A DNA stretch of 64,000 nt from a virus (taxonomy: Duplodnaviria > Heunggongvirae > Uroviricota > Caudoviricetes): IMG/VR virus record IMGVR_UViG_3300010883_000008, positions 2,668-66,667 of that record; one strand, written 5' to 3'. This document shows positions 2,285 through 63,477 of this stretch, piece by piece; positions within the stretch are counted from its first letter, which is position 1, and every line of letters starts with the position of its first letter. The translations under genes were made by a program, and so were the position numbers. Below the pieces are notes generated by a model. The model saw nothing but the letters and a program-made list of their open reading frames with translations. It was not told the origin of the DNA and searched no databases.

Positions 2285-2300
2285 GTGCAACTGATTGCAC
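2285..2300. repeat. palindrome family copy: GTGCAACTGATTGCAC
   Basis: Near-perfect 16-bp inverted repeat with half sites GTGCAA/TTGCAC. It lies in the non-coding tRNA-like region. Confidence 0.85.
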
Positions 2301-2480
2301 AAATTAACTAGCCAAGAAGGATTCGATTTCTCGACCCCACATTCGGTGACCGTTGCTCAACACCACGTAGGGGATCAACAACCCGTCTAGGCGTTCCGCT
2401 GCGATAACCTCGACCGTCGCCGTGGACTTACCCCACGAGACCTTACTACCAATTCCCAACAATAACATACCATCCCTTTC

Positions 2481-2801
2481 TCAAAAGATTTCCCATCGAT
2501 CATCGACACGATGATAGCCTATAACGTCGTAAACTTGCCAATTCTTCTGGTATTGACTTAACCATTTGAGGAACGTTCTTCTCTTTTGATAACGTTGCAC
2601 ACGGGTCACTTCCCGCGTTTTTCGTGACACCAGTTCGATCTTAAACATGAGGGTACTTTCATGATGTTTTCTCGAATCAGGTGCAGTTGTATTATGCCGA
2701 ACCTCGCGGACCCCCATCCACTCAAACGGTTCGGCACCTGTCGGAGACCTATTCACGACAGGCGAATTCTCGTAGACCCACACGGACGCTCTTGGGGTCA
2801 A
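2481..2801 (-). CDS. hypothetical protein
   Basis: 106-aa ORF. It overlaps the next gene by 53 nt, so the start is probably internal. Confidence 0.3.
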   Translation of the reverse strand: MTPRASVWVYENSPVVNRSPTGAEPFEWMGVREVRHNTTAPDSRKHHESTLMFKIELVSRKTREVTRVQRYQKRRTFLKWLSQYQKNWQVYDVIGYHRVDDRWEIF

Positions 2802-3159
2802 ACTTGTATTGTTTTTTGTCGCTTAGGCGACGGGCGATAATCGGGTATTTGGGGGCACTCCGATTAGCACCTACGATCTGGAAGGTGTGACCATCATACT
2901 CGAATACCCGATGCATGTCGTCAGCTTCCAGTCCCCACTGAGGGGCCAGTCTTTCAAAGTCGGTGACCGTGCGATCACGAACCTTACCACCTTCGCCCAC
3001 CACAGCGACCTCAAGTTGGAACGTACAGTTCTCCGTGGTGAATTTGCCCCGGCCTACCTTAATGGATAGCCCGAGAGCCAAAGCAGACTTTTCCAGTTCC
3101 GCTTCGATGTGATTTCGTAGTTTCGTTACGACCTCACTGTTTAATTCGTCAATTCTCAT
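2749..3159 (-). CDS. hypothetical protein
   Basis: 136-aa ORF. Composition is protein-like and the arrangement is compact with its neighbours. Confidence 0.45.
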   Translation of the reverse strand: MRIDELNSEVVTKLRNHIEAELEKSALALGLSIKVGRGKFTTENCTFQLEVAVVGEGGKVRDRTVTDFERLAPQWGLEADDMHRVFEYDGHTFQIVGANRSAPKYPIIARRLSDKKQYKFDPKSVRVGLREFACRE

Positions 3160-3161
3160 GA

Positions 3162-3377
3162 TTAGTATACCTCCACCGAGATTTCCGCCATTTCAGACAT
3201 GTCGATGACTTCGACAGGCATTCCGCCAAATTCTTTGGCAATCGCGTCGACTTCGTCCCCGGAGAATTCCGAGGCTTCGTCTCGCTGAGTTGTCCAGCGG
3301 AACCCAAAGTCTGTGGTAGCGACGTACCGGAGGGGCTGGTTTGTGATCAGTAGATACATAGTAGGTCTCCGTAGCAA
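3162..3377 (-). CDS. hypothetical small acidic protein
   Basis: 71-aa ORF. It follows the previous gene with a 2-nt gap. Confidence 0.4.
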   Translation of the reverse strand: MLRRPTMYLLITNQPLRYVATTDFGFRWTTQRDEASEFSGDEVDAIAKEFGGMPVEVIDMSEMAEISVEVY

Positions 3378-3428
3378 GGGGGGTATCGTTTTCCGATGAG
3401 TACAGTATCGCAGGTCAGCTTTTACGTG

Positions 3429-3611
3429 TCAAACATCACTGCTGACAGGTTTTTCAACCAACTCCCCGCGTAATACTCGAATCGACGGATCAGCATCGAT
3501 ACCTAACTTAATGGTGTTTCCTCGTACTTTAGTCACGGTCACTATTACGGGACCGAGGGGGGTCTCAATCATCAGGCTTTCGCCGGGCTTCCGAGATAAA
3601 ATTAACGCCAT
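3429..3611 (-). CDS. csrA: CsrA/RsmA-family post-transcriptional regulator homologue
   Basis: Internal Met start at 3611 with a GGAGGA Shine-Dalgarno sequence 7 nt upstream. The 60-aa product, MALILSRKPGESLMIE..VIVTVTKVRGNTIKLGIDADPSIRVLRGEL, aligns along its length with E. coli CsrA ([47 protein letters not shown]). Confidence 0.75.
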   Translation of the reverse strand: MALILSRKPGESLMIETPLGPVIVTVTKVRGNTIKLGIDADPSIRVLRGELVEKPVSSDV

Positions 3612-3724
3612 GTCCAATCCTCCATGAAAATTACAACTACGTAGGCAACAACACCTATCGTTAAAGCCCCTGTGACCCATAGCAGGGTCGGCAGGGGGAT
3701 GCTAAAGATGAATCCTTCCATCAT
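3602..3724 (-). CDS. small single-pass membrane protein
   Basis: Internal start MMEGFIFSIPLPTLLWVTGALTIGVVAYVVVIFMEDWTWR, one hydrophobic helix. ATGA start/stop overlap with the upstream gene and an AGGAGA Shine-Dalgarno sequence. Its 3' end overlaps the csrA start. Confidence 0.4.
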   Translation of the reverse strand: MMEGFIFSIPLPTLLWVTGALTIGVVAYVVVIFMEDWTWR

Positions 3725-4008
3725 CGATTCTCCTGAAGTTCCTTGAGTGCTTTTTCCAAGATCGCCACGTCCCGGGCTGCTCGTTCGGATACGTCCTTCA
3801 TATCCGGACGTTTGTCCGCAGACCAATTCTTGTAGTGATCCACCCAAAAGGCCAACTCATCGAGGCAGTCCCCGAAGCCTTCGTGAACAACTGCGAATTT
3901 GGCATGGCGGTTGCTGTCGTTCGGGAGCCGCCGAACCTTTAGTCCGGTGTCCTTGAAGAACGTCGTGTTACGAATCTTATCCGCGTGCATATTCCGCCAC
4001 TCCTTCAT
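3721..4008 (-). CDS. hypothetical protein
   Basis: 95-aa ORF with charged composition. Confidence 0.45.
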   Translation of the reverse strand: MKEWRNMHADKIRNTTFFKDTGLKVRRLPNDSNRHAKFAVVHEGFGDCLDELAFWVDHYKNWSADKRPDMKDVSERAARDVAILEKALKELQENR

Positions 4009-4288
4009 CCACCGATTTGCATCCGGTGGTCTGCATGTTGAAGTCGTCCATCTTGACGCCGACCGACATCAGCCAGATAGCTCGTAGCACCTTACGTCGA
4101 TGCGGGGAGGTATTGAACAGCTTGATGGTCGAGGGCTTTTCAAACCCCAGCTTCACACAGGCGTTTTGAATGTCGACTAGTTTGGGTTCGTTGTTAGCCA
4201 TAAGAAAGGTCTCCAGTTGGGGGTGTCGTTTGGCAATCGATTTGCCATATAAAGAGTATCGACGATTCCCTTCCAAAAGTCCAGTCAT
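3977..4288 (-). CDS. hypothetical protein
   Basis: 103-aa ORF. Confidence 0.4.
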   Translation of the reverse strand: MTGLLEGNRRYSLYGKSIAKRHPQLETFLMANNEPKLVDIQNACVKLGFEKPSTIKLFNTSPHRRKVLRAIWLMSVGVKMDDFNMQTTGCKSVDEGVAEYARG

Positions 4289-4306
4289 TTCTGGGGTATA
4301 AAATTA

Positions 4307-4525
4307 TTAGGATTCTGGCTCGATAATGGCCTCAGCCCAGTAATAGATAGCTACAGTTAACACGGGCGGATGACCATCCTCACTTGGGATGCAGTTCTCC
4401 GTGATGCTTTGGATGTTTGCCCGACCTACTCGATGTACGTATCTACGTACTCGATCCATAGTAGGGTTAGCATCCTCATCGTGGGTAGGGTCTTCCTCCG
4501 AGAATTCTTGTCGCCACAGGTTCAT
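4307..4525 (-). CDS. hypothetical protein
   Basis: 72-aa ORF. Confidence 0.35.
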   Translation of the reverse strand: MNLWRQEFSEEDPTHDEDANPTMDRVRRYVHRVGRANIQSITENCIPSEDGHPPVLTVAIYYWAEAIIEPES

Positions 4526-4615
4526 ATCAGTCTCCTAAAGTAAAAGGAGCCTTAGGACGAATCCCAAGGCTCCCCGCGAAGTTCCTCGTTACTCCCAGGT
4601 AACGCGGACTATGTA

Positions 4616-4927
4616 TCAGTCTTTCATCTTTTTGATTTGTTTGTTGTACTTCTCAGCCCAATCGTTGGGTTTTTCTTCCTCTTTGTCCCCGAGCAGTTCC
4701 CGGGGAGTCTTACCCTGTTCCGTGATCGTAGCGACCACCCCAAGACTTTTGCTCCGGGTTCCTCCGAGAACAACCGTTATGTAACCCTTCCTTTTGAGGT
4801 ACTGAACCGTTTGTTCTAAATCCGGGTCCCCGACCTTCAAGTCCAGATCCAGAGCAAGATCCCTGACTGCGATTGTGGACTCATCCGCATCGCGTATCAA
4901 CTTTAGTATTCGGTTCCATTGCAGCAT
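4616..4927 (-). CDS. hypothetical protein
   Basis: 103-aa ORF with a Lys-rich C terminus. Confidence 0.45.
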   Translation of the reverse strand: MLQWNRILKLIRDADESTIAVRDLALDLDLKVGDPDLEQTVQYLKRKGYITVVLGGTRSKSLGVVATITEQGKTPRELLGDKEEEKPNDWAEKYNKQIKKMKD

Positions 4928-4930
4928 GGC

Positions 4931-5269
4931 TTAATCCATAGGGCGAGAGAGTATGTCGTCAGGGGGTTCCTCCACCGAAACCCCGTAGTCCTCGATAGGG
5001 CTAGGAAGTACCAGGGGGCGAAGGGATACCCGTTCAGGTTTTGGCACCTTTACAGGCTCAGTTAAAAGGTAGCCTGAAACAGTGCGTAGGTAGGGGCGTT
5101 TCTTTATGATATAGAGACACTCCCAAGTACAATCCAGACTTCGTATAAAGTCGTCTGCTTCCATCGACGTACTAAAGATGTAGTCGTCAGGGGAACTCAG
5201 GGGGAGGAAGCTCCGCCATTCGGCCATCCGATGGGTAACTTCTATACGGCAGGGTCCGCGTCCGTGCAT
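4931..5269 (-). CDS. hypothetical protein
   Basis: 112-aa ORF. Confidence 0.4.
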   Translation of the reverse strand: MHGRGPCRIEVTHRMAEWRSFLPLSSPDDYIFSTSMEADDFIRSLDCTWECLYIIKKRPYLRTVSGYLLTEPVKVPKPERVSLRPLVLPSPIEDYGVSVEEPPDDILSRPMD

Positions 5270-5319
5270 GTCACTTCCCTAATAATGTATCGTGAACTCC
5301 CCCATCATACCACAAACTT

Positions 5320-5796
5320 CTACTGTTTCATATCCGAGATCTGCACGCCGGGCTTCCCCGATTTGGTTATGCGGGACGCTGAGATAGCCGCAGCGAGTGC
5401 TTTCTCTTCATCAGATCCACCCCCCGCGTCAACCAGCTTAAGTAAGGCATCCACTTTCGATCCCGATTCTTTGTATTCAATCGCAATCATGTGGCCTAGC
5501 AATTTGGTGTGGACCGACAACAACGCTCGAAGGGGATGTTCTTCGCCGGATTCCCGGGGGTAGCTTGCGTTCAGCTTCCGAACCAGTTTGATCATGTGCA
5601 TCTTCCCCGGCAGAGGGACGGTCCCTTTGGTTTTCGTGGACAGCACCAACTCGTTCATCAAGTTCACAAGGTCAGTCTCATCCTGAACAAGGTCGTTCAT
5701 TTGTTTCTTGGTCTTGACATAGGTTTTAGCCAAGCTGTCAACCAGAGCTTCTTGCGAAGTAAATTCTTCCTTAGTGACGGGGTTAACGTGGAGCAT
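5320..5796 (-). CDS. hypothetical protein
   Basis: 158-aa ORF. Confidence 0.45.
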   Translation of the reverse strand: MLHVNPVTKEEFTSQEALVDSLAKTYVKTKKQMNDLVQDETDLVNLMNELVLSTKTKGTVPLPGKMHMIKLVRKLNASYPRESGEEHPLRALLSVHTKLLGHMIAIEYKESGSKVDALLKLVDAGGGSDEEKALAAAISASRITKSGKPGVQISDMKQ

Positions 5797-6073
5797 TCTT
5801 ATTTTCCTCTTGAATAGTTCTCATTAGGTGAGCCGCAAACGACTTTTCGAGATCCCCCAAGGATTTCGCGTCTGAGGTCCAAACTTCTACGGTAGGGGAG
5901 TTTGGCCGAGTCTTATCATGTTCCCGAATCACGTGGAGTTTCTCCCCCTTCATGAACCGGTACATCTGGCCCGTCCGGCGATGCACGTCCTCGTTCATCG
6001 ATTTCACCGGAAATCCTAGATGGTCCTTTAACCATGCCACGAACATCGGTATCAAGCCTGCATCTAAGGTCAT
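5783..6073 (-). CDS. hypothetical protein (may be the 3' part of a frameshifted gene)
   Basis: 96-aa ORF overlapping ORF 5916-6284 by 158 nt in another frame. Its C-terminal part is protein-like. Confidence 0.35.
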   Translation of the reverse strand: MTLDAGLIPMFVAWLKDHLGFPVKSMNEDVHRRTGQMYRFMKGEKLHVIREHDKTRPNSPTVEVWTSDAKSLGDLEKSFAAHLMRTIQEENKNAPR

Positions 6074-6284
6074 CCAAGCGTTCCTTTAATATCACGGCGT
6101 CCAATTCTTCGCCGTTAGTTTCGCCACATAGGGCATTCTTTGCCAAGCGTACCAGTTCATAACTCAAGCTAGTACGAATCCCCGACTCCCGTTTTGCCGC
6201 GACAATTTCAAGCAAGTACTCAAGTACCCACTCGTCAGTCCGACGAAAGGTGATCTCCCGAGTTTGGTTCTTGCCCTTGGGCAC
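5916..6284 (-). CDS. hypothetical protein (N-terminal ~70 aa convincing, tail low-complexity)
   Basis: 122-aa ORF. Residues 1-70 (MPKGKNQTREITFRRTDEWVLEYLLEIVAAKRESG...) look genuine. The part overlapping ORF 5783-6073 turns Gly/Pro/Arg-rich. Confidence 0.35.
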   Translation of the reverse strand: MPKGKNQTREITFRRTDEWVLEYLLEIVAAKRESGIRTSLSYELVRLAKNALCGETNGEELDAVILKERLDDLRCRLDTDVRGMVKGPSRISGEIDERGRASPDGPDVPVHEGGETPRDSGT

Positions 6285-6444
6285 GGTGTCGCTCCAATCC
6301 GATTTTCAGTACTTCAACCGCAGCAGCACCTTGGGACAACGGAATGCCTTGGCGTTCCGCAATGTCCCGTAGTTGCTGGAGGGCATCGAAGATCCATAAA
6401 TCTTCCTTCGGCACCCAGATGGATAGTTTACGGCCTTTGATCAA
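6235..6444 (-). CDS. ribbon-helix-helix (CopG/Arc-like) DNA-binding protein, putative
   Basis: 69 aa. KLSIWVPKEDLWIFDALQQLRDIAERQGIPLSQGAAAVEVLKIGLE fits the RHH beta-strand, helix A, helix B pattern. It sits just upstream of the vWA/MoxR pair. Confidence 0.45.
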   Translation of the reverse strand: MIKGRKLSIWVPKEDLWIFDALQQLRDIAERQGIPLSQGAAAVEVLKIGLERHRAQGQEPNSGDHLSSD

Positions 6445-9263
6445 GATACACTCCGGATTACTTTCTGTAACAGTTTCCTCATGTCATTTACGAGTTGCCG
6501 TAAGTCGAGGAACTGTATGTAATGCTTGAACATGGACGACGATTTGAATCTCGTTATGGCTACCTGAACCACGTCCATTTCCTTTTCCAATTTCCGAACT
6601 TCGTCCCGAGTGGCACGGCGAGCAGTATCTCCACCATAGTCGTTGCCACAGGGGGCTCCGTCAGACAGCACCAGCATCAGACGATTCTCATTGTCGGTGT
6701 TCTCCTTGAACAGTCGACCGGCTTCCCGTATCGCCATGTGGTCATAGTTCTGACCACCGTCGCCGTACCCACCTATCGAGTAGACGTTCTTTTGTCGTTT
6801 GCCGTACAGGTACTTCATGTAGTTGTCGTCATGTCTGTTACACGAGGCATACGAGTAGATCTCAAGTTCGATCTTCGACACGTTAGCCAGAGCTTCGGCG
6901 AACAGGATAGCGATTTGCTTTGCCACCCCCGCTCGACCGTTCCAATCTTGGTAGGAACCCTTGCAGGTCCCCATCGATCCCGACTCATCCAAGAGCAGGC
7001 AGATTGCCAACCCTTTGGACGTGATCTTGGACGTGTTCTTGAACAGCCGTTTGGTGGAGCGGGCTCGTCCCAGTCGACGCCCGTCCAATCGACCCTCGAT
7101 CAGTTCTCGGTTGTCAACCAGTCTGTCCCCACGTCGGAAGGACAAGGCATTCTTGGTCCGGCCAATGAAGGGCTGTACCAATTTCTTCCCCGCCAAGTAG
7201 TCTCGTTTAGCGGACTCGTCCGGTCGTGGGTGAGATATGACAGTTCTTCGTCGAGTGTACTTGTCACACGGGCACGTTTCGGCCTCAACGAATTCCAGAC
7301 GTTCATCTTCGGCCTTAGCCAGTTCACAGGATTCCTCAAGATCCATCGTTCCCCCGTCAAAGGCTTCCATCATCCGAGCTAAGTCGATCAGCCCGAATCG
7401 TTCACCCTCACGGGATTTCTCCAAGGCGTCCGAGGCTTCCTTAAGGTCATCCAGCTTTTTCTCGTCCCGTTTGGCATCGGCCAACCGATCATCTTTCATG
7501 GCCTCCGTCAGATCGGAGAGATCCTTCAACTTTTCCAGGGCTTTCCGCATCCGTTCCCCCGTAGCTTCGATATCCTTTAGTAGAGCTTCCGTGTCGGTAT
7601 CGGTTTCCTTGGCGAGTCTGTGGTCATCCAGCCGCGTCAGGGTATCATCCATCTCGGCCTTCATCACATCGCCATCGTCCCGCCCGGCCAACTCCATCAG
7701 GAAGTCCCCGAAGTCTAGCTCGGGTTCGGGGAGTTCGGGTTCGCCTTCGCCTTCCGGCGTCGGGTGTTCCCCGCCCGTCGTTTCTTCCCCGCGTTCCGTT
7801 GTTTCTTCGTCAGACGTTTCGAGCGAGTCTTCTTTCGTTTCCCCGCTTCCGCCTGTAGTTGATGTTTCATCCGTTGGAAGTCCGTCACCCCCTGGCTCTC
7901 CGGGGCCACCCCCTCGTTCGGATCGACTGGGGTCGGAACCACCCCCGCCAGTTGCATCTGATCCTTCAGTTGATCTGCCGCTTCCGCCATCGTCAGAGGG
8001 TCCGGTGTCGACTCCATCGGTTTCTCCTTCTGGTGTCCCGGAGGAAGATCCACTGGGACCGTCCGGGGTACTTGATTTGCCATCGTCATCCCCGTCGCCT
8101 GCTCCGGGGTCATCGGAGGTTGGGGGCTCACCGGACCCATCGTCGCCAGCTTCGGGGGTTGACTCACTGTCCGACCCGTCTGAGTCCCCGTCACATTCAG
8201 CAGATCCACCTTCGGCGGATTCGTCGGAGGATTCGTCGGAGGTAGATTCTTCTCGTCCATCGTCAGGTTCCTTATCAGGTTCAGTGCAATCAGTTGCACT
8301 AGATTTTTCCTCGGCCCGTTTATCGGCCATTTCTTTTTTAACGTCCTCGATCATTTCGTCAACACGTTCATCGCCCAAGGCTTCACGCAACGCATCTTCA
8401 TCGTCCTTAGCAGCAAGTTTGTCGTAGATGTCCTGCATCCGGTTGAAGTACTCAACCAATCTGGCCCCCGCCATTTCCACGTCGTCCTCAGTCACCGGGG
8501 TGTGGGGTATGACACCCCGCAACTCGTCGAACGCACAGTCGCCTTTCACAGTCTTCCAAGTTTTCATCGCGGGGGATAAATGGTACGGGCACCGGATGGC
8601 TGTAAACATCAACGTGGTGAGTTTGTCTAGGTCCGTCAACTTGTCCCAGTTGGTCAACGATTCAAGGAATTTCTTGGCTTGGAAGATCACCCGTTTCGAC
8701 GCCTGTAGATACGGAGCATACCCCGGGCTGCGTTTACGGGCGAGGTTCTCGATGCGTTCGTCTTCAAGCAGGTTCTCCCACATGATCCGTTTGGGATCAG
8801 AGAGAGCTTTGGATTGCAGACGTAGGCCGAGCTTGCGAGTGGAGATTAGATGTTCCGTCTCATGGATACCTAACCCACAGTAGGCGTCCATCATTTCTTG
8901 ACCATCGGCCAAGTCATAGACGCTCGTGCCCAGGAAGATGAACGGTCCCTCCCATGGGTCCATTCTTTGCCATCCCGCCATGCCGGAAGCGGCTGTCCCG
9001 ATGGACGCCAGTTGGATGTTGGTCTTGGGGGGTGCCCCGTGGATCTTACAGATCGAAGCTACCGCATTGCGTATGCGGATAAGATCGAATACCTTTTGTT
9101 GAGCATCTTTGGCCTTGGTTCGGCCATAGCCCCACCCGCCTGAGGTCGAGGCGGATCGTAGAACTTCGTCCCGTTCAACTTCGGCGGCGGCGAGTTCCGA
9201 TATGAAGTCGTCTCCCTCAACCGTAAGTTCCAGGGGCTCGTATTCATGTGTCCAGTTTGGCAT
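6441..9263 (-). CDS. vWA-domain protein with N-terminal HExxH region and long acidic low-complexity linker (CobT-like / DUF2201-like MoxR partner)
   Basis: 940 aa. C-terminal von Willebrand A domain with MIDAS motif DESGS (LAICLLLDESGSMG). About 170 aa of D/E/S/G-rich sequence and a coiled coil. HETEH motif at about aa 150. Confidence 0.75.
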   Translation of the reverse strand: MPNWTHEYEPLELTVEGDDFISELAAAEVERDEVLRSASTSGGWGYGRTKAKDAQQKVFDLIRIRNAVASICKIHGAPPKTNIQLASIGTAASGMAGWQRMDPWEGPFIFLGTSVYDLADGQEMMDAYCGLGIHETEHLISTRKLGLRLQSKALSDPKRIMWENLLEDERIENLARKRSPGYAPYLQASKRVIFQAKKFLESLTNWDKLTDLDKLTTLMFTAIRCPYHLSPAMKTWKTVKGDCAFDELRGVIPHTPVTEDDVEMAGARLVEYFNRMQDIYDKLAAKDDEDALREALGDERVDEMIEDVKKEMADKRAEEKSSATDCTEPDKEPDDGREESTSDESSDESAEGGSAECDGDSDGSDSESTPEAGDDGSGEPPTSDDPGAGDGDDDGKSSTPDGPSGSSSGTPEGETDGVDTGPSDDGGSGRSTEGSDATGGGGSDPSRSERGGGPGEPGGDGLPTDETSTTGGSGETKEDSLETSDEETTERGEETTGGEHPTPEGEGEPELPEPELDFGDFLMELAGRDDGDVMKAEMDDTLTRLDDHRLAKETDTDTEALLKDIEATGERMRKALEKLKDLSDLTEAMKDDRLADAKRDEKKLDDLKEASDALEKSREGERFGLIDLARMMEAFDGGTMDLEESCELAKAEDERLEFVEAETCPCDKYTRRRTVISHPRPDESAKRDYLAGKKLVQPFIGRTKNALSFRRGDRLVDNRELIEGRLDGRRLGRARSTKRLFKNTSKITSKGLAICLLLDESGSMGTCKGSYQDWNGRAGVAKQIAILFAEALANVSKIELEIYSYASCNRHDDNYMKYLYGKRQKNVYSIGGYGDGGQNYDHMAIREAGRLFKENTDNENRLMLVLSDGAPCGNDYGGDTARRATRDEVRKLEKEMDVVQVAITRFKSSSMFKHYIQFLDLRQLVNDMRKLLQKVIRSVS
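8284..8299. repeat. palindrome family copy: GTGCAATCAGTTGCAC
   Basis: 16-bp inverted repeat inside the acidic region of the vWA gene. Confidence 0.85.
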
Positions 9264-9348
9264 AACACAGGTCTCCTAATTGGGGGTAGGTTCATTTCCA
9301 TACCCATACAATAACCGATATCCTCAGTCACCACAAGGGGTTACTCGA

Positions 9349-10932
9349 TTATCCAATGTCACCCTTCTGGATGATTTGGAGGACTTTCGTGCGATCCGAT
9401 TCTTCCCCACCCTCGTCCGAGAAGTGGCAGAGGATTGAACCCCTACAGGCTAAGTCGAACCGCATACCATCCGCGAGCTTGCGTCCCGTTGCCAACAGCA
9501 TTCTCGTAGATATGAACTCGGGGAATTCTTGGTCCCCGCGAGTCAGTTCCCGCTGTCGTACGGCGATCTTCACTAGTCGAACCGCGTCCACCCGTTTCAG
9601 ACCTTTGCATCGTCCCGTCAGGATGGTCACTTCGTTGGCCTCGGGTGGGAAGAACATCTCGATGATGGTGGAGAAGCGATCTTTCAACGCCTTATCCAAT
9701 GCTTCCGTTCCCGTGTACTCCATGCCGATGTTCGCCGTAGCGGTGATGGAAACTCCCTCACCCATGTTAACTATCGACGCGTCGTCATGCTCGTCCAAAG
9801 CGATGTACCGTTGGCTGTCCAACGCGGGCAGTAAGATATTGAATGCGGCTGGTACGGCACGGGTCAACTCATCCAACATGATGATGCTGTTCCCGAGATC
9901 CCCCCGGTAGGCTTGCACGAATCGGGCATCCGATACATACGTCCCCGCCTCATTCAGTCCTACGTTTCCGATCAGCGAGGTTCGAGGCTCACTCATGGCA
10001 CCGCAGTTGAAGGCCGCTAACTCACGTTCAACCGCACGTGATACAAAGTGTAGCACCTGTGATTTACCTGACCCCGAAGGTCCCACCAGAAGCAAGTTCT
10101 CCCCTGGTGTCAAGATGGTGTAGCAGATCTCTTCCCAATCGTCCTTGGACACGAAGAACTCCGAAGGATGGGGTCGACGTATCGTCTTGTAGAGCGGTGT
10201 CGGTCGATCAGCCGCAAGTTCCTCCATCCGGGCTTTGACCTCATCGGTGGCCGACTTGGCGATTTCCGCAGGTTCCCCGAAGCCCTCTACTGGGTCGACC
10301 GGATCGACCGGGCTGGTAGGGGTCGGTGGCAGGAATTCTTCGTCGGTCGTGTCCTCCGGGGCATCCCCCGGACGAACCGCACTCGCTCCAGCATCCCGAA
10401 CTTCGGGTGATGCCGATGCCTTCTTGAGTCGTAGGGACGCTTGGCATTCAGCATATATGCGAGCCGGATTGAATGGGCGTTCTTTGGCCTCCAGACATGA
10501 CGTGTCCGGGTCCTTGCCGTCCAATAGCCACAGCAGGTTATGTAAGGACACATCTCCGATCCGAGGGGACACAGCCCCTAGAGAGTTCTCACCCTTAGGC
10601 AAGTTCAGCACCACTGCGTAGGTGAGAGGGCTGGATGTTCGCCAGGGGATAACCCCATCTGAATCGATCTCGACGCCCCCGCCCTCGGTCCAAGTGTTCA
10701 GATCCGTTCGGACCACTCGCTCATGGTCGCACTTGGATTCAAACTTGTACATCGCACAGTCGCAAACTGTCGCGTCGGGCGTGATAGATACGTTGGTAAG
10801 CAGTCTGGCAGTATTGCTCACGATTTGGAATACCTCAAATTGGTTTTCGTCCACTTTGAAGCCAATTAAGATAGCCTTGTCCGCCATAACATGATCTCCT
10901 GAAATTGGGGGTTCGTTCGTTTCGTCCAACAA
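9349..10932 (-). CDS. MoxR-family AAA+ ATPase (CobS-like)
   Basis: 527 aa. Walker A LLLVGPSGSGKSQ and Walker B IIMLDELTR. It sits immediately downstream of the vWA partner, the usual MoxR/CobS genetic coupling. Confidence 0.75.
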   Translation of the reverse strand: MLDETNEPPISGDHVMADKAILIGFKVDENQFEVFQIVSNTARLLTNVSITPDATVCDCAMYKFESKCDHERVVRTDLNTWTEGGGVEIDSDGVIPWRTSSPLTYAVVLNLPKGENSLGAVSPRIGDVSLHNLLWLLDGKDPDTSCLEAKERPFNPARIYAECQASLRLKKASASPEVRDAGASAVRPGDAPEDTTDEEFLPPTPTSPVDPVDPVEGFGEPAEIAKSATDEVKARMEELAADRPTPLYKTIRRPHPSEFFVSKDDWEEICYTILTPGENLLLVGPSGSGKSQVLHFVSRAVERELAAFNCGAMSEPRTSLIGNVGLNEAGTYVSDARFVQAYRGDLGNSIIMLDELTRAVPAAFNILLPALDSQRYIALDEHDDASIVNMGEGVSITATANIGMEYTGTEALDKALKDRFSTIIEMFFPPEANEVTILTGRCKGLKRVDAVRLVKIAVRQRELTRGDQEFPEFISTRMLLATGRKLADGMRFDLACRGSILCHFSDEGGEESDRTKVLQIIQKGDIG

Positions 10933-11560: not shown

Positions 11561-12568
11561 TTAACTCTCTGTGGTCGGGGCGACAACTACCGGGGTGACG
11601 ACTTCGGCTACCGGAGTAGGTTCAGGCGTTGGGGCAGCTTCGACGACGGGTTCCGGAGCAGCTTCTTCAACCGTTTCGCCCTTGGCCTCAGCATCCGCAG
11701 CTTTCATCTTGGTGTAGCGTTCCTCATCAATCGACTTGATTTCGAGTTTGACCCCGAAGGCCGCTTCCAAGTTTTTGACGCCAACTTCCAGTTTGCTCAA
11801 AGCCCCCGTAAGTCCCGACCCCGCCGAACTAGCCATGAAGTCCGCACAGATCAACTCCAGTGCGAAGTTGTCCTTATCGGACCCCGACATGGTCTTAGCC
11901 AACGTAACGGCCTCGTCCACGATGATGGCTTGGTCTTCGTGCAGGGCGAAGGCTCGTCGAACGATATCCGAAGGTTCCCCGTCGCTACCGGAGGCGAGAC
12001 CCTTCATTTCGCGAACCATTGCCTTGACTTCCGAAACCTTCATCGATTTCAGTTTGTCGAGGATCTCGACCCAGTTGTCTGCATCGATCACGTCTACGAC
12101 TTCTTTCGCCTTCGACCATTCCAGGCCCTTCAAGATGTCAGGGGACAGCCCCAACTCGACGCAGAACTTCTTGTAGATGTTGACCAAGTAGTACGCTTTG
12201 CGTTTCTTGAATCCGAGTTCGTGGAGAGCGTATTCCTCAAAGGATGCGTACTCGCGGGTGTCGTCACCGAATGTGCCGATGTAGGCTTTCCAGTAATCGT
12301 TGCTGTGGACTTCGTAGAGCATCTCGCCCTTGAGAACGTCCAAGCGATCCGGCATGTCGTTGGTCTTGAGCAGTACGTCACGTACCGCGTCTCGACGTTC
12401 CGGAAGGGGCATGTCTTTCGACATTTGAGGGAGACCTGAAAGGCCCCCAGCTAGGATGGTCATACCTTCACCACCGGTGACGATAAGAGCGGTAGTCTCA
12501 GGGGCGGCATCCGCCTCCGGAGGTGTGACAACTTCGGGTGGAGTGATTGTTGCAGCGGCGTCTGTCAT
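11561..12568 (-). CDS. hypothetical protein with acidic TPE-rich termini
   Basis: 335 aa, protein-like with conserved-looking core YALHELGFKKRKAYYLVNIYKKF. The overlapping 318-aa plus-strand ORF is Arg/Phe-rich antisense. AAGGAGA Shine-Dalgarno sequence upstream. Confidence 0.5.
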   Translation of the reverse strand: MTDAAATITPPEVVTPPEADAAPETTALIVTGGEGMTILAGGLSGLPQMSKDMPLPERRDAVRDVLLKTNDMPDRLDVLKGEMLYEVHSNDYWKAYIGTFGDDTREYASFEEYALHELGFKKRKAYYLVNIYKKFCVELGLSPDILKGLEWSKAKEVVDVIDADNWVEILDKLKSMKVSEVKAMVREMKGLASGSDGEPSDIVRRAFALHEDQAIIVDEAVTLAKTMSGSDKDNFALELICADFMASSAGSGLTGALSKLEVGVKNLEAAFGVKLEIKSIDEERYTKMKAADAEAKGETVEEAAPEPVVEAAPTPEPTPVAEVVTPVVVAPTTES

Positions 12569-13247: not shown

Positions 13248-13904
13248 TTAGTCGGCGTCGGGCAGTCGGATATGGGTGATGGTCATCTCGATGTCATCGA
13301 TATCGATATCCAAGTCTTTGGCGATGCGTAGTTTCGCATCGTTAAGTTCCTGATCCGAGGGAGGTTCTTCTCCCCCCATCAAAGGTACGAGGTGTTCTTG
13401 GAAAGCCACTTCCATGGCAGCAGGATCAATGTCCTTCTTTTTGGTCCCCGGTTCCCCGTCCGCTTCCGAATCGCAGAACGGACAGTCACTTTCCCCGCAG
13501 GAACCAATCGGGGATTTTTCAGCTTTGCGAGGTTGTGCAATCGATTGCACTGGGATGTTGATCGGAGCTTTTCGCGGTTTGGGGTCGTTCCCCGTGATCT
13601 CGCGGTAGAATTGCATTGCCGTGGGGCGAGTCTGCAACATTCGCAACGCTGTGTTGATGCGTTCGTCAATAAGCAGCATCAAATCGAGGTCCTGGGGGGC
13701 ACGGATACCCGAGGCTAACAGTTCCTCGTATCGAGTGGAGTCTTCGTCCAGTCCTTCGATCAGGGAAGCTGTGTCCATTAGCCAGCCTGAGGCGAGTTCC
13801 GAATCGTGGGCTGACAGGGGTTCGTCAAACATGTTCATTTCTCCAGTGGGGTGACGTGTTTTTTCCAACGAAAGTAGTATCGACCATTCACTCGGGAATG
13901 TCAA
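13248..13904 (-). CDS. hypothetical protein
   Basis: 218-aa ORF. It contains a palindrome copy at 13535-13550. Confidence 0.45.
   Translation of the reverse strand: MTFPSEWSILLSLEKTRHPTGEMNMFDEPLSAHDSELASGWLMDTASLIEGLDEDSTRYEELLASGIRAPQDLDLMLLIDERINTALRMLQTRPTAMQFYREITGNDPKPRKAPINIPVQSIAQPRKAEKSPIGSCGESDCPFCDSEADGEPGTKKKDIDPAAMEVAFQEHLVPLMGGEEPPSDQELNDAKLRIAKDLDIDIDDIEMTITHIRLPDAD
13535..13550. repeat. palindrome family copy: GTGCAATCGATTGCAC (perfect)
   Basis: Perfect 16-bp palindrome inside the coding sequence. Confidence 0.9.
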
Positions 13905-19609: not shown

Positions 19610-19626
19610 GTGCAATCCAGTTGCAC
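19610..19626. repeat. palindrome family copy (17-bp variant): GTGCAATCCAGTTGCAC
   Basis: Lies 6 nt upstream of the helicase ATG, in a 61-nt intergenic gap. No Shine-Dalgarno sequence is visible between it and the start codon. Confidence 0.8.
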
Positions 19627-36026: not shown

Positions 36027-36044
36027 CTACTCATACTCCAAAGG

Positions 36045-39078: not shown

Positions 39079-39126
39079 GTTTATTTACTCCGTAAGTAGG
39101 TTCACAAGGTCAATATACCATAGTAT

Positions 39127-42488: not shown

Positions 42489-42872
42489 TTAACATGTTGG
42501 TGCAATTGATTGCACAACCCTCATTACCTGAAACTGACCGCCGAAGGTAAATAGCTTGGAGCGTACCTGAGGTTTATCCAGACTGGTGAAGTACACGTCG
42601 TACTCGTCCCCCCAGTATCCCACAAACCGGTATAGGGGGGAAGGGTCAGCTACGTAGAAATCGTGGAGCGTCTGGAATTCCGTAGGCCACGCACTTTCCA
42701 GCGAGAAAGGAATAGTTCCCTCCCCATGGATAATCTCGATAGCAGCAGATTGTACCACAACTGCATTGGCAGTTCTAGTAGTTGATCTACGCTTCGTAGG
42801 AACGTAAGGCTGGTAAGAGAAGTGGATTGGAAGATCCACTCCCTCAAACGTAGCTATGTTAGTAGTCGCCAT
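42489..42872 (-). CDS. tail protein (distal tail/assembly), by position
   Basis: 127 aa between the tape measure gene and the fibre gene. Confidence 0.4.
   Translation of the reverse strand: MATTNIATFEGVDLPIHFSYQPYVPTKRRSTTRTANAVVVQSAAIEIIHGEGTIPFSLESAWPTEFQTLHDFYVADPSPLYRFVGYWGDEYDVYFTSLDKPQVRSKLFTFGGQFQVMRVVQSIAPTC
42500..42515. repeat. palindrome family copy: GTGCAATTGATTGCAC
   Basis: Lies 18 nt upstream of the fibre ATG, overlapping the last codons of the upstream gene. Confidence 0.85.
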
Positions 42873-48104: not shown

Positions 48105-48126
48105 CCAGTGCAATCGATTGCACTGG
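48105..48126. repeat. palindrome family copy, extended perfect 22-bp form: CCAGTGCAATCGATTGCACTGG
   Basis: Perfect 22-bp palindrome in a 51-nt intergenic gap. Confidence 0.9.
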
Positions 48127-50607: not shown

Positions 50608-50623
50608 GTGCAATCAATTGCAC
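50608..50623. repeat. palindrome family copy: GTGCAATCAATTGCAC
   Basis: Lies in a 29-nt intergenic gap. Confidence 0.85.
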
Positions 50624-50627: not shown

Positions 50628-51344
50628 TTAAATGCGGAAAAATGTACCTAACCCGTTGTCATGCGTTCCCCGCTTATCCGGAACAGCCATGAACAGACTG
50701 GAGTAATTGATGTGATCTTCCAACAATCGATCAACAGCTACGAATCCGGTTCGTCCCCCGAACGCATCCGAGCCTTTGAAGGTTACAGTAAAGTCATTCC
50801 AGACAGCTTGTTTCACGTCAGTGTTAGCCATCTTAGCCGCACCGGGAATCAGAGCTTCCATAGTCAGTAAGATGGTGGCCTTTTTGATTGCCGGAGGAAC
50901 CGCCGCTCGACCCCAAGTTCCTTCCACATGAATGTTCTTTTGACCCCGGGGCCAGATACCTCCCCGACCGAAGCGAACTCGGGGACGATCATGGTCATGA
51001 CCTAGATCCATATCGACCCAATAATCGTACTTGATGAAATCGTCGTTCTCCGTGTAGGTCCGTAAAACCGTAGTCCCATCGATGTCGATCTCCTTGAGGG
51101 AGGTGATCGTCAAAAGTCTGTAGGAGGTGTCCGGGGGGAAGAACAACTTATGTAACCCGTTGCCATCAAACTGGTTAGTTTCCGTCTTCTCATAGAAACA
51201 GTCACCCGTGATAGAGTCAATCACGGCCTCTACTTCCTCAAGGCGGTCCTCAATTTCAGGATCGGTGTACTTGTAGAAGTTTTTGACTACGGTGCCCGCA
51301 ATCTTGTATTCGCGGATATTATCGGCTGTAGCGTAATTAGGCAT
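50628..51344 (-). CDS. head-tail connector (gp6-like), putative
   Basis: 238 aa. Position is immediately after the head genes. Confidence 0.4.
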   Translation of the reverse strand: MPNYATADNIREYKIAGTVVKNFYKYTDPEIEDRLEEVEAVIDSITGDCFYEKTETNQFDGNGLHKLFFPPDTSYRLLTITSLKEIDIDGTTVLRTYTENDDFIKYDYWVDMDLGHDHDRPRVRFGRGGIWPRGQKNIHVEGTWGRAAVPPAIKKATILLTMEALIPGAAKMANTDVKQAVWNDFTVTFKGSDAFGGRTGFVAVDRLLEDHINYSSLFMAVPDKRGTHDNGLGTFFRI

Positions 51345-51541
51345 TATCCAAACCTCGGGGGATTGCGTTCGGCTTCAAGTTCTGTGGCTCGGTCCACAGC
51401 GGATTCAGCATCAGCTTCAAGGTTAGATTCCATTATAGCATACTTGGCAGGATCGTTCCAAGTAGCTTCCTCTTGAGCTTCCATAGCAACTTCCGCAGCA
51501 CACTCCAATAGGGCACACTTGCCAGTCTTTAGAATTCCCAC
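51344..51541 (-). CDS. small acidic protein (GTG start)
   Basis: 65 aa. The start codon is GTG. Confidence 0.3.
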   Translation of the reverse strand: MGILKTGKCALLECAAEVAMEAQEEATWNDPAKYAIMESNLEADAESAVDRATELEAERNPPRFG

Positions 51542-51569: not shown

Positions 51570-51585
51570 GGGCAATTGGTTGCAC
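51570..51585. repeat. degenerate palindrome family copy: GGGCAATTGGTTGCAC
   Basis: Two mismatches to the consensus. It lies in a 43-nt intergenic gap. Confidence 0.45.
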
Positions 51586-51872
51586 TAGACAGATTTTGTA
51601 ACTACACCGAACGTGATATCCGCGTCCCCGCCGTCACCCTTAACAGTAACCTTTCGGATACCAATAGGGTTCAACCGAAAGATAATACTCTCCCCCGCGA
51701 CGAGGGGGAAGAATTCTCCCGCATCGTGAAGTCCTGGGATGTTAATCAAAGCCGGGAATCCCGAGCCTGAGGTAACACCCACCTTAAATTCTGTACAACC
51801 TGCGGTGATTCCCGTAGGTTCGTAAATGTCTGTACCTCCAACAGGTACGGTAGCTGATCCGGCAGATGCCAT
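51585..51872 (-). CDS. hypothetical head-associated protein
   Basis: 95 aa, Gly/Thr/Val-rich. Confidence 0.4.
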   Translation of the reverse strand: MASAGSATVPVGGTDIYEPTGITAGCTEFKVGVTSGSGFPALINIPGLHDAGEFFPLVAGESIIFRLNPIGIRKVTVKGDGGDADITFGVVTKSV

Positions 51873-56043: not shown

Positions 56044-56062
56044 GGTTATTCCTTAATCATCA

Positions 56063-56091
56063 AATCTTACACAATCTGAAAAACTTGTCAA
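56063..56091 (-). promoter_or_regulatory. sigma70-like promoter candidate (TTGACA-17-AAGATT with upstream TG)
   Basis: Perfect -35 on the minus strand (56086-56091). The -10 is weak. The palindrome copy at 56111-56132 is centred about 65 nt upstream of the predicted transcription start. Confidence 0.3.
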
Positions 56092-56110
56092 GTCGAAGGT
56101 CTAGTTTCAG

Positions 56111-56132
56111 CCAGTGCAATCGATTGCACAAG
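56111..56132. repeat. palindrome family copy, 22-mer: CCAGTGCAATCGATTGCACAAG
   Basis: Identical 22-mer to the copy at 62880-62901. It lies in an 89-nt intergenic gap. Confidence 0.9.
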
Positions 56133-57053: not shown

Positions 57054-57055
57054 GC

Positions 57056-60697: not shown

Positions 60698-61335
60698 TAG
60701 ATTCTACGTCCTCGTTTGATTAACTCGTTGATGTCCTTGAGGATTTCCTCTTCCGACCGATCATCCGGGTGCTTCTCAACAACTTCTGCGGAGTCGTCAC
60801 CTTTAAGGGTGTGGAAGATTTTCTCGGCTTCCTTAGGAATAATGCCCGTATCCTTCATCAGGTCCACAGCCAATTTCTCAGCTTTCAAGGCCCCTTCCAG
60901 CATACGTTGCTTGTTTTGATCGTTGCCCTTAGAGGCTTCCCGGGTGATAGCTCCCGTATCGGGGTCTACCGTAGCGGCCCCTGCCCCGGATTGGTTAGCC
61001 TCAAACATGAAGATATCTCGACACCGTCGCATGAAGATTAGCGACTCTGCGATGATATCCGCAGCAGGCTTGTTCTCCATGCCTTGGCGGTGGATTTTAA
61101 CGCCTTGATCCAGCAGTCGGTAAACAGTACTACTAGAGACTCCGTAGAAAGCCGCGATGCTTTTAACTGGCATACCGTTCATACGGTTCATCCAGACAGC
61201 TTCACATTTCTCCTCGGTAGTCATCGTACTTAGACGTTTACCGTAGACCTTCTCATCTTCCGAAGGTGTATCTACCTCCGGATCACGAGGGGTCGAAGTA
61301 TCGTCTAACGATTCCAGAATATCGAGTATGCCCAT
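60697..61335 (-). CDS. terminase small subunit-like HTH protein
   Basis: 212 aa. HTH MPVKSIAAFYGVSSSTVYRLLDQG. Sits directly upstream of the large terminase gene. Confidence 0.5.
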   Translation of the reverse strand: MGILDILESLDDTSTPRDPEVDTPSEDEKVYGKRLSTMTTEEKCEAVWMNRMNGMPVKSIAAFYGVSSSTVYRLLDQGVKIHRQGMENKPAADIIAESLIFMRRCRDIFMFEANQSGAGAATVDPDTGAITREASKGNDQNKQRMLEGALKAEKLAVDLMKDTGIIPKEAEKIFHTLKGDDSAEVVEKHPDDRSEEEILKDINELIKRGRRI

Positions 61336-61360
61336 ATCTTAACCTCCAAGGGTACACAGG

Positions 61361-62107
61361 TTAGGATACGGCGGGTTCGATAATAGTCTTGAAGAAATCA
61401 GTAACGTTCCCACCATCCGTTCGGACCTTGTCACTGATTTTACGTACGAGCTTGGATAGATCGTCGTCACACAAGACCATCATATGAGTCTTCCCCTTAT
61501 AAGAGAAGATCATATAGCCTTGATCGAGAGTGTCCCCGAAAGACGAGAAGATCTCGTTGATTACGTCACTCAGCCCGTCAATAATGTGCTTGTCGCGGTC
61601 AACTTCGGCCATCAGTCCATCGAGGAACGATTTGTCTTTAGGATCAGCCCGCTCAATAAGTTGCTTATCCATAAGAGTTTCATTCTCGAAACCCATTAGT
61701 CGAGCCATCTCTTCCCGAGGTATCACCCCCGAGAGACCTTCGACCAAGTCCGTAAATTTCCGCTTATCTAATTCGCCCGAGAGCATGTTCTTACGCATGG
61801 TCTGGGTTTTTTGTTTTACTTCGTCCCAATCCTTGATGATGCAGGGTAGTTGAGGTTGGCCCTCAGCTACAGATACCCGCCAACGATGCTCACCGCTGAT
61901 AATCCGGTAGTGATCCCCATCCGGCCAGTCTTCTTCATGAGCATCCGTCAATAGGGGACAGACTACAAGGGCGTGATCAAAACCCTCTTGCACAATCTCG
62001 TCCGCGAGCATGTTAAATACTTCGTCAGATTGACTGTTAGGGTTCCAAGGATTCGCATGTAAATGCGACACTGGGATAAGTACAGGTTCGAGTATCTCAA
62101 AGGGCAT
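61361..62107 (-). CDS. ParB-like nuclease domain protein with HTH
   Basis: 248 aa. Box I LIPVSHLHANPWNPN and box II IISGEHRWRVSVAEG (ParB GERRxRA). HTH-like IPREEMARLMGFENETLMDKQL. Confidence 0.6.
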   Translation of the reverse strand: MPFEILEPVLIPVSHLHANPWNPNSQSDEVFNMLADEIVQEGFDHALVVCPLLTDAHEEDWPDGDHYRIISGEHRWRVSVAEGQPQLPCIIKDWDEVKQKTQTMRKNMLSGELDKRKFTDLVEGLSGVIPREEMARLMGFENETLMDKQLIERADPKDKSFLDGLMAEVDRDKHIIDGLSDVINEIFSSFGDTLDQGYMIFSYKGKTHMMVLCDDDLSKLVRKISDKVRTDGGNVTDFFKTIIEPAVS

Positions 62108-62109
62108 GT

Positions 62110-63477
62110 TTAGCTCCGCTTTTTGTATAGATTTGCTGACCCAATAACCGGATCAGCATTCTCCACCAACCAGCGATGAAGGTTTCTGTGGGCACCAATC
62201 AGTATAACGTAGTTTCCGAAACCTGCATCATACTTCTTTGCCGCCAAATCTGCAAACTCTTTGAGAGTGAACTGTTCCGGCAACTCGGCGACCACCGCCG
62301 TAAACTTGTCGTCCCATTCTCGGAACGGAGTCCACGAACCTGCGATGTCCTCATTCATTATAGCGAGATACCCCGCTGCTGCAACTCCAATGTCGTGTTC
62401 CTCCACGAACTCAGCAACGATGGGAGCTACCATCTTACGAGCCTCGTCGTAATTCTCGAAACAATACTTGAGCAGGGCAAGCAATTCCGACTGACTGGAG
62501 TAGAAAAACGGGTAGTCTTTCCCCACCAGAGCATATGCCCAACTTAAGTTAGGTAGGAGTAGCGGGTTGCCCGTACAGAACTGCTCGGAAAGACCAAACG
62601 AAAAGCCCTCATCCTCGGACATGGAAACAGACACATGACACTGATTCATCAGCTTCAAGTAGTCCATATACGGGAGAGGTTCAAGGTATTGAACCTTCTC
62701 GAATTTATCCAAGTCCCGACGAGTCGCCGAACTGTTGGGATAGACGGACTTGATTTCCACGTCCAGCCCCATCCGGAAAATATCCTCGTAGGCCCCCAAA
62801 ACTTCCTTCCACCGTTTATTCGAGTTGAATCTCGCAGCAAAAAGCATCGTGAATTTGTCAAACTTGGAAACTTCCGGGTCCAGTGCAATCGATTGCACAA
62901 GTTCACAAGGGACTCCCTGGGACCGGATAAGTCCCGTATCCATTATGGACTGGGTGGAAGACGCCGACAAATACCGTCGAGCTTCCGTAATGGCAAACCC
63001 TTTTTCCCGAGCCGTGGGGAAGAACGTTCGACACTCTGACCATGAGACCGCACGTAGCTTAGTCTCCACCGAATTGTCGTTGGAGATAGGTGTCTGCACC
63101 CAGTACTCAGCGATAAACACGGGTATGTTAAGGGCTTCCGACATCTTGAACATGCGTTTGATGTTCGCCGCAATCACGTTCTTGGACGTGATAACCGCGT
63201 CTACTTGATACTTCCCATTGACCGGATTAAACAGAGCGTATAGCTCCGAACCAATGTACCCTTGAGCAGCCGAATAGGGATGCCAATGATCAAGGTAGAT
63301 ATACCTCACATTCGGGAGCTTACAATCGTCAGGGATTTCCGCATCTTTATTGATGGGGATAAAGCAGGTTATCTCGGGCCATTGCCGAGCGAACTGCATC
63401 CATGTCACAAAGTCGGACTCCCGCCATACGGTCTTGCGGGTAGATATCAGGGGTAGAATCAGCAGCTTAGTGATCAT
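62110..63477 (-). CDS. glycosyltransferase (GT-B fold, GT4-like), putative
   Basis: 455 aa. MSEDEGFSFGLSEQFCTGNPLL resembles the GT-B signature. It contains the palindrome copy at 62880-62901. Confidence 0.5.
   Translation of the reverse strand: MITKLLILPLISTRKTVWRESDFVTWMQFARQWPEITCFIPINKDAEIPDDCKLPNVRYIYLDHWHPYSAAQGYIGSELYALFNPVNGKYQVDAVITSKNVIAANIKRMFKMSEALNIPVFIAEYWVQTPISNDNSVETKLRAVSWSECRTFFPTAREKGFAITEARRYLSASSTQSIMDTGLIRSQGVPCELVQSIALDPEVSKFDKFTMLFAARFNSNKRWKEVLGAYEDIFRMGLDVEIKSVYPNSSATRRDLDKFEKVQYLEPLPYMDYLKLMNQCHVSVSMSEDEGFSFGLSEQFCTGNPLLLPNLSWAYALVGKDYPFFYSSQSELLALLKYCFENYDEARKMVAPIVAEFVEEHDIGVAAAGYLAIMNEDIAGSWTPFREWDDKFTAVVAELPEQFTLKEFADLAAKKYDAGFGNYVILIGAHRNLHRWLVENADPVIGSANLYKKRS
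62880..62901. repeat. palindrome family copy, 22-mer: CCAGTGCAATCGATTGCACAAG
   Basis: Identical 22-mer to the copy at 56111-56132. Confidence 0.9.

Follow-up and report, generated by a model that had tools for sequence, protein, structure and literature searches.

An evenly spaced family of palindromes across a phage genome and a phage-encoded protein that may read it

Why does a phage carry the same short palindrome at regular intervals along its DNA, and which protein might read it? The question is raised by 64 kb of uncultured phage DNA (IMG/VR record IMGVR_UViG_3300010883_000008, positions 2,668 to 66,667; hereafter the window, whose own positions are used for all site coordinates), in which the element GTGCAA-N4-TTGCAC occurs 12 times, once with a 5-nt centre. 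A sequence-only reading of the window had pointed to this family, writing of eleven strong copies while listing twelve; all twelve are present where it placed them. They lie at 2285-2300 and 25029-25044 (both GTGCAACTGATTGCAC), 8284-8299 and 31275-31290 (both GTGCAATCAGTTGCAC), 13535-13550 (a perfect site, GTGCAATCGATTGCAC), 19610-19626 (the copy with the 5-nt centre, GTGCAATCCAGTTGCAC), 38517-38532 and 42500-42515 (both GTGCAATTGATTGCAC), 48105-48126 (a perfect 22-bp palindrome, CCAGTGCAATCGATTGCACTGG, core 48108-48123), 50608-50623 (GTGCAATCAATTGCAC), 56111-56132 (core 56114-56129) and 62880-62901 (core 62883-62898). The last two are identical 22-mers (CCAGTGCAATCGATTGCACAAG) separated by 6769 bp, in agreement with the extended flanks and 6.8-kb distance noted earlier. 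Three degenerate copies had also been proposed. Two of these are genuine one-mismatch sites, at 35363-35378 (GTGCAATCAAATGCAC) and at 51570-51585 (GGGCAATTGGTTGCAC, between the open reading frames (ORFs) 51344-51541 and 51585-51872), but the third, at 47357 (GTGCAGTTGCAC), is not a site, its half-sites being wrongly spaced.

The palindrome family is real, non-random and genome-wide. The relaxed pattern TGCAA-N2-6-TTGCA has 12 matches in the window, compared with 0.22 +/- 0.48 in 100 dinucleotide-preserving shuffles (maximum 2), and the full GTGCAATNNATTGCAC has 7 matches compared with 0.00, bearing out the claim that chance occurrence is negligible. The flanks of the sites are mutually unrelated, and thus the copies are spread over the genome, as had been proposed, and do not derive from one duplicated segment. 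Every centre contains a pyrimidine-purine step (CG in four copies, TG/CA in seven and CCAG in one), while the centre and positions 7 and 10 of the 16-mer vary freely. The GTGCAA half-sites lie 10 bp, or one helical turn, apart, and the element has the 14-16-bp palindromic form of the sites in ParB-parS, KorB-OB and Noc-binding site (Noc-NBS) systems. The asymmetric centre variants (CTGA/TCAG and TTGA/TCAA) are present in both orientations, which fits symmetric recognition of duplex DNA and argues against an RNA or strand-specific role.

We then considered how the sites are distributed. The gaps between the 12 sites are 5999, 5251, 6075, 5419, 6246, 7242, 3983, 5608, 2500, 5506 and 6769 bp (range 2500 to 7242), an interval of about 5.5 kb with a coefficient of variation (CV) of 0.238. 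Recurrence about every 5 kb had been claimed and holds; the evenness is in addition significant, which goes beyond that claim. Under random placement, a CV of 0.238 or less has a probability of about 5e-6 to 1.5e-5. Twelve randomly chosen gene boundaries give such a CV with P = 1e-5, and on that basis we rejected gene boundaries as the source of the even spacing. With the two weak sites included (14 sites), the CV is 0.36 (P 9e-5), and weak site 35363 sits midway in the longest gap, between 31275 and 38517. Even spacing is also found in relatives of this phage, described below: a 76.9-kb contig (CV 0.43, P 9e-4) and the loci L069 (CV 0.27, P 0.008), L123 (CV 0.20, P 5e-4), L214 (CV 0.25, P <1e-5), L049 (CV 0.41, P 0.02) and L142 (CV 0.43, P 0.016). 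Over 13 loci, non-significant ones included, the Fisher-combined P is 7e-11. An evenly spaced cis site across a whole viral genome is very unusual, and full-text literature searches returned no description of evenly spaced phage palindromes. Such spacing implies a factor with limited reach along DNA, so that a spreading distance could be read from sequence.

The placement of the sites with respect to genes indicates that DNA, and not peptide, is under selection. The window is 95.3% coding, with every gene on the minus strand. Despite a non-coding share of 4.7%, 5 of the 12 sites are intergenic, and in 13 related loci intergenic sites number 37 out of 113, compared with 12.6 expected. The intergenic copies nearly constitute their gaps, with a stop codon 3-4 nt before and the next start 6-70 nt after: the copy at 19610 is in a 61-nt gap with the helicase start codon 6 nt on, that at 50608 occupies a 29-nt gap (stop 4 nt before, start 9 nt after), and those at 48105 and 56111 follow stop codons by 4 nt and 3 nt, respectively. 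The fifth, 2285, lies within a 645-bp stretch (1837-2480) that lacks a convincing ORF in this 95%-coding genome and could serve in regulation or as an origin. Of the seven coding copies in the window, six share one frame, V-Q-S/L-I/V-A, which avoids Cys, His and Arg codons. It is read as VQSIA in ORF 13248-13904 (site 13535), in a GT2-like gene (38517), in the final 8 codons of ORF 42489-42872 (42500) and in a 455-aa glycosyltransferase-like gene (62880), as VQSVA in ORF 24715-25323 (25029) and as VQLIA in a gene for a 396-aa protein with an N-terminal helix-turn-helix (HTH; 31275). The sole copy in a different frame (..ATDC..) is at 8284, in the gene for a CobT/VWA-like 940-aa protein. Across the 13 related loci, coding copies use all three reading frames, which argues that the DNA sequence is what is selected.

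We also asked whether the sites accompany promoters. A promoter-like TTGACA-16-TAAGAT lies 22 bp downstream of the palindrome at 56114, on the coding strand, as one of an identical pair at 56369-56342 and 56091-56064 (-). Promoter-like matches number 26 overall, compared with 17.7 +/- 4.5 in shuffles, and 56114 is the only site with an adjoining strong match. Thus, we rejected a promoter association, and a purely promoter-bound operator role is unlikely.

When IMG/VR was scanned for the 16-mer and nothing else, unrelated single matches came up together with many contigs that are protein-level relatives of this phage. These carry multiple TGCAA-N4-TTGCA sites, mostly CG-centred; in the 76.9-kb contig (63% GC), the 62 kb available contain 23 of them. 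The motif-bearing relatives span 42-64% GC, several at 42-48%, and their DNA similarity to the window is confined to coding-level matches. A motif common to phages of such different composition is unlikely to serve a host factor. Syntenic relatives without the TGCAA motif have dispersed 16-bp palindromes of their own, nearly all CG-centred: CCGCACACGTGTGCGG (L206, 5 copies, in gaps of 2.8-4.2 kb with CV 0.20, P=0.008), CTCCAATCGATTGGAG (L213, 14 copies), TTGCACGCGCGTGCAA (L208, 5), GTGAAACCGGGTTCAC (L211, 4), TTGCACACGTGTGCAA (L146, 10), GTGCACTTAAGTGCAG (L158, 7), GGGACCATACGGTCCC (L134, 5) and GTGCACCCGGGGACAC (L124 and L204 together, 6). By comparison, palindrome families in Markov-1 simulated control sequences reach 2-4 copies at most. 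Phage and specificity therefore evolve together, the pattern that sites and a phage-encoded reader should produce. In the DNA-polymerase relatives L117-L120 we found no TGCAA motif, and a weak GTGCAGACGTCTGCAC-like family (2-3 copies) there does not rise above background.

Two further motifs came to light in these scans. In L204 (5712, 9080 and 14798) and L124 (1663; IMGVR_UViG_3300029267_001718), sigma-70-like promoters (TTGAC ... TATA) hold a conserved palindrome, CGCCGATACCGGC, in their spacer, with at least 4 repeats; it represents another operator-type motif of a relative, distinct from the dispersed palindromes. Unrelated low-GC gut-phage contigs of about 30 kb (L004, L021, L027, L030, L044, L054 and many others; sample 3300045988) carry one copy of the 16-mer just before a start codon. 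These single copies belong to one homologous region with a conserved flank, tgaaaatGTGCAATCGATTGCACaaattggaATG, and look like an ordinary single operator unrelated to this clade.

Which protein reads the sites? That they bind a phage-encoded protein is very probable, and a protein-binding role, toward which the sequence-only reading had leaned, is the best reading of the family. Our candidate is the 335-aa product of the gene at 11561-12568 (-), a member of phrog_17202 ('unknown function') with no Pfam assignment. Its model has a predicted HTH domain at residues ~55-190 with a fold like the DNA-binding domains of ParB, Noc and KorB; the predicted local distance difference test score (pLDDT) is above 90 across residues 50-190. 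The sole sensible Foldseek match of the model is the Noc DNA-binding domain on NBS DNA (probability 0.94, target template-modelling score 0.67), and at the sequence level we found no similarity to ParB or Noc. The family is large, comprising 3305 clusters at 50% identity (E <= 1e-3), of which the best 150 are all stand-alone proteins of 166-423 aa. A distant member in L019 has a weak DUF3102 match.

Several neighbourhoods connect this gene to the palindrome. Apart from a common helicase, the phrog_17202 protein is the only window protein that recurs in unrelated large phages fetched by the motif alone. In the window, the perfect site 13535 lies 967 bp upstream of the gene. In L019 and L025 a site stands directly 5' of the ribosome-binding site of the homologue, in L087 (14 sites in 23 kb) one stands 61 nt past its stop codon, and in the L166/L053 clade one stands between the homologue and a ParB_N gene. 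The putative recognition helix also changes along with the motif: it is R-K-A/S-x-Y-L/M where TGCAA sites occur, KKSMAHYLKG with a CTCCAA motif, KRSTARYRIQ with TTGCAC..GTGCAA, and KAYTLRQ in the GTGCACCCGGGGACAC contig; the window protein has KKRKAYYLVNIY, and its counterpart for CTCCAA sites is KKSMAHYLKGIY. Across lineages with different motifs, the HTH of the TerS-like protein and the helical region of the ParB_N protein stay unchanged. The chance that the product of 11561-12568 is the binding protein is about even. Three other roles or readers were rejected. The TerS-like HTH_23 protein retains one recognition region (GVS.STVYR) from lineage to lineage although their motifs differ, the 396-aa HTH protein (30460-31650) has no homologue in motif-rich L049, and the phrog_17202 protein itself does not look like a thymine dioxygenase partner, being helical with no Tet_JBP match and no HxD motif.

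The sequence-only reading had named a ParB-like protein of this phage as a possible binder. This is the 248-aa ParB_N protein (61361-62107, -; PF02195, phrog_26387), whose gene directly precedes those for the TerS-like protein and TerL and is conserved beside them; site 62880 lies 776 bp upstream of it. Its model comprises a nucleotide-binding domain (residues 1-110), helices (115-147), a low-confidence segment (154-213) and a C-terminal beta-beta-alpha-alpha domain (198-247), and Foldseek aligns it to ParB/Noc over ~145 columns. Neither the domain scan, the model nor Foldseek revealed a recognisable DNA-binding domain. As this domain is missing and the helical region is constant while the motif changes, we rejected the ParB_N protein as the direct reader. 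The lead was thus useful and half right: it named the right family, but a different gene, 11561-12568, is the better candidate and probably the reader. The two genes keep company in relatives: of 79 ParB loci, 44 have a phrog_17202 homologue, and in 29 of the 79 it immediately precedes ParB_N, often with a palindrome separating the two.

Collectively, these observations are consistent with a model in which a dimeric HTH protein encoded by the phage, most likely the product of 11561-12568, binds the palindromes as cis-acting sites in double-stranded DNA. The half-sites, one turn of the helix from each other on either side of a flexible pyrimidine-purine step, would suit a symmetric dimer that reads two successive major grooves. 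The HTH protein would mark the sites, and the ParB-fold protein, which lacks a DNA-binding domain, would be recruited or loaded there and then spread along DNA; an even spacing of 1.5-5.5 kb would allow the whole phage genome to be covered by a factor that spreads over short distances. The binding, the partnership with ParB_N and the purpose are what we infer here. Taken as a whole, a parS-like two-protein system of sites read by the phrog_17202 product with a ParB_N partner is our best explanation, and we hold it to be about as likely as not. That the two proteins work together as a spreading system is in itself a tentative proposal, on the doubtful side. More speculative still is the idea of a widespread, undescribed two-gene 'split ParB' of lytic phages, in which a stand-alone reader loads a CTPase-fold protein that spreads and marks phage DNA. 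The purpose could be compaction or packaging, base or sugar modification, protection, or KorB-like global gene control. The location beside terminase genes suggests compaction or packaging, while the sugar, methyl, kinase and radical-SAM genes of the window, together with the published ParB-dioxygenase partnership discussed below, suggest, by analogy, targeting of modification enzymes.

A number of observations weigh against this model. The covariation of helix and motif is qualitative and confounded by phylogeny, and L206 retains an R-K-A-E-Y-L helix with a different motif. The phrog_17202 and ParB_N genes of the window are 49 kb apart; PF02195 and the candidate DNA-binding domain are on separate polypeptides, where ParB-type systems have both on one chain; and no fused ParB_N and phrog_17202 protein was found in the top 150 of the 3305 family clusters or among 10 long members. 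The scanned window ORFs, about 70 in all, gave no match to a ParA/CbiA-type partner. A 60% GC group (L132-L141, L148, L164 and L171) has both the phrog_17202 homologue and ParB_N, and no dispersed palindromes above background in 20 kb. Finally, the downstream purpose is a guess.

Alternative explanations must be weighed against the same data. The palindromes might be RNA hairpins in polycistronic transcripts, acting as processing, stability or translation signals, as all genes are on one strand, several copies stand just before start codons, the intergenic ones lie 3-4 nt past stops and 6-70 nt before starts, and a terminator scan listed 48105-48126 as a 9-bp stem. That copy was the only one listed, however, and its tail is weak, with no T-run after the stem. 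The stems are invariant and do not covary, the 'loop' keeps a central CG or pyrimidine-purine step, more than half of the window copies are deep in coding sequence, asymmetric variants occur in both orientations, and even spacing has no RNA rationale. We regard this reading as very improbable. Equally improbable is that the sites are host LacI/GalR-family operators (a PurR/CytR/GalR-type box), regulatory or acting as decoys that titrate a repressor. LacI-family operators tolerate an extra central base, as in copy 19610, and the CG-centred copies match TGNAANCGNTTNCA. The fit of TCGA-centred copies to this consensus, which the sequence-only reading had noted, stands for 4 of the 12, but the operator reading itself is not supported: the other 8 lack a central CG (TG/CA or a 5-nt centre), the motif is kept in phages of 42-64% GC that are unlikely to share one host regulator, and close relatives have unrelated palindromes instead, so that specificity travels with the phage. 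The sites are, moreover, even and within genes and not at promoters, and no LacI-family domain (HTH_LacI plus periplasmic-binding-like) was found in the window ORFs scanned.

Somewhat less remote, and still quite unlikely, is that the sites are recognition sequences of an enzyme (a nicking or restriction-like nuclease, or a base- or sugar-modifying activity), with the spacing set by its processing reach. Such palindromes are typical of dimeric DNA enzymes, and T5-type phages carry site-specific nicks. The window has a glycosyltransferase cluster, a CmcI-type methyltransferase, a P-loop kinase and a radical-SAM gene, and DNA thymine dioxygenases are activated by phage ParBs that lack a DNA-binding domain (PMC13229309). 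Against an enzyme, no Tet_JBP dioxygenase (PF12851), clear-type DNA methyltransferase or nickase was found in the window or in the ten genes neighbouring ParB_N in relatives; characterised dioxygenases prefer trinucleotide contexts, not 16-mers; and the centre and positions 7 and 10 are freely variable. The variable centre also disfavours the sites as target of an orphan methyltransferase. The strongest competitor, though itself unlikely, is another phage-encoded protein, either a small unannotated early protein or one encoded outside the window, with phrog_17202 linked to the sites by shared ancestry only. The specificity clearly goes with the phage, annotation is missing for about half of the window ORFs, part of the genome probably lies outside the window (the exact ParB_N protein is also on a 99,426-bp contig), and some phrog_17202-bearing loci lack dispersed palindromes. 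The two other HTH proteins fare poorly in this role, given the absence of the 396-aa protein from L049 and the constancy of GVS.STVYR in the TerS-like protein despite motif change, and no other window protein recurs beside the motif in unrelated phages fetched by the 16-mer.

If the phrog_17202 protein does read the palindromes, a likely role would be assigned to a large unannotated family, and the related phages with differing palindromes and recognition helices would form a natural specificity-switch series, whose orthogonal protein-site pairs could serve as genome-labelling tools. Rapid motif switching among relatives would prevent cross-talk between co-infecting phages. The model also offers a testable answer to how phage ParBs that lack a DNA-binding domain locate DNA, and whether defined sites are where they act, a question that the sections examined of two studies leave open (PMC12704722; PMC13229309).

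The phage itself is uncultured and siphovirus-like. The window encodes packaging and structural proteins (GpA-type TerL, portal, major capsid protein and tape measure), replication and recombination proteins (DNA polymerase I, primase, DnaB, DnaC-like, RecA-like, Cas4-like exonuclease and RusA), CobS/CobT-like proteins, CsrA and several glycosyltransferases. Given the exact ParB_N protein on the 99-kb contig, it is probably part of a larger genome. Megablast found no cultured relatives; no phage record exceeds 26% identity in TerL or DNA polymerase, no cultured phage is above about 25% in TerL, a search of IMG/VR with a tail protein returned no relatives, and a host search in bacterial genomes returned eight fragments of metagenome-assembled genomes only, which were uninformative. 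The CsrA homologue (3429-3680, -; PF02599, E 1e-14) is a global post-transcriptional regulator not common in phages. The CobT/VWA-like 940-aa protein is paired with a CobS/MoxR-type AAA protein (6441-10932, -), and the pair is kept in relatives L117 and L118. A gene for an SPFH/Band-7 protein (31671-32318, -) lies between replication and glycosyltransferase genes. Sugar and modification genes at 34248-39552 and 62110-63965 (-) encode a GT4 glycosyltransferase fused to a methyltransferase-like region, a CmcI-type O-methyltransferase, a GT2-like protein, a P-loop kinase (AAA_33), a second glycosyltransferase and a radical-SAM fragment; this cluster suggests modification of DNA or of a virion glycan.

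How does the proposed system compare with known ones? Its closest analogues are KorB-OB on RK2, Noc-NBS and ParB-parS. RK2 carries many dispersed OB sites. On this IncP plasmid, much as we propose here, a ParB-family protein reads a CG-centred palindrome dispersed over a mobile genome of ~60 kb. Unlike the phage pair, which is encoded by two separate genes, KorB is one polypeptide with nucleotide-binding, DNA-binding and C-terminal domains; OB sites are at or near promoters and not even, whereas the phage sites are evenly tiled; and RK2 is a plasmid with a ParA (IncC), whereas this is a lytic-looking phage. KorB is a CTP-dependent sliding clamp with a reach of about 1.5 kb, and it acts together with KorA, a second, small HTH protein (PMC11790492). 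The 1.5-5.5 kb spacing of the phage sites matches this short clamp reach, and even spacing would thus cover the full phage DNA.

Like the proposed phage system, Noc-NBS and ParB-parS have a 14-16-bp palindrome with a central CG that is read by an HTH domain, and Noc sites are likewise dispersed over a genome. The specificity of ParB and Noc shifts through few residues in and near the recognition helix. The phrog_17202 protein differs from both in having no sequence similarity to them, no N-terminal CTPase domain in its chain and no ParA partner found, and parS differs in clustering near the origin, whereas the phage sites tile the replicon. Among phage proteins, the ParBs that activate thymine dioxygenases (5mYOX) resemble the window ParB_N protein in layout (a nucleotide-binding domain, a short helical piece, a low-confidence linker of ~50 residues and a C-terminal domain) and in a context of glycosyltransferase and terminase genes (PMC13229309). 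They differ in that no Tet_JBP gene is found in the window ORFs or beside ParB_N in relatives, and in that neither cis sites nor a separate DNA-binding partner is described for them in the sections examined. CTP binding is reported for phage proteins in which the ParB fold is fused to a C-terminal dimerisation domain (PMC12704722). Full-text literature searches returned no report of a separate DNA-binding partner for phage ParBs.

Genome-wide arrays are also known from temperate phages. In mycobacteriophage L5 (stoperators) and phiC31 (inverted repeats), one phage protein binds tens of genome-wide sites, many in short intergenic gaps, a distribution that the window sites share. Those arrays belong to lysogeny repressors, and L5 sites are asymmetric and orientation-biased, whereas the window sites are palindromic with asymmetric variants in both orientations; the window ORFs scanned gave no match to an integrase or a CI-type repressor. 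To our knowledge, the L5 and phiC31 sites are not reported to be even, in a favoured gene frame or swapped among close relatives. By analogy, then, what would set the present system apart from known ones is that no ParA was found, that the reader and the nucleotide-binding module are separate, that the sites are evenly tiled and that the motif is replaced wholesale among relatives. The finding is clade-wide and unusual.

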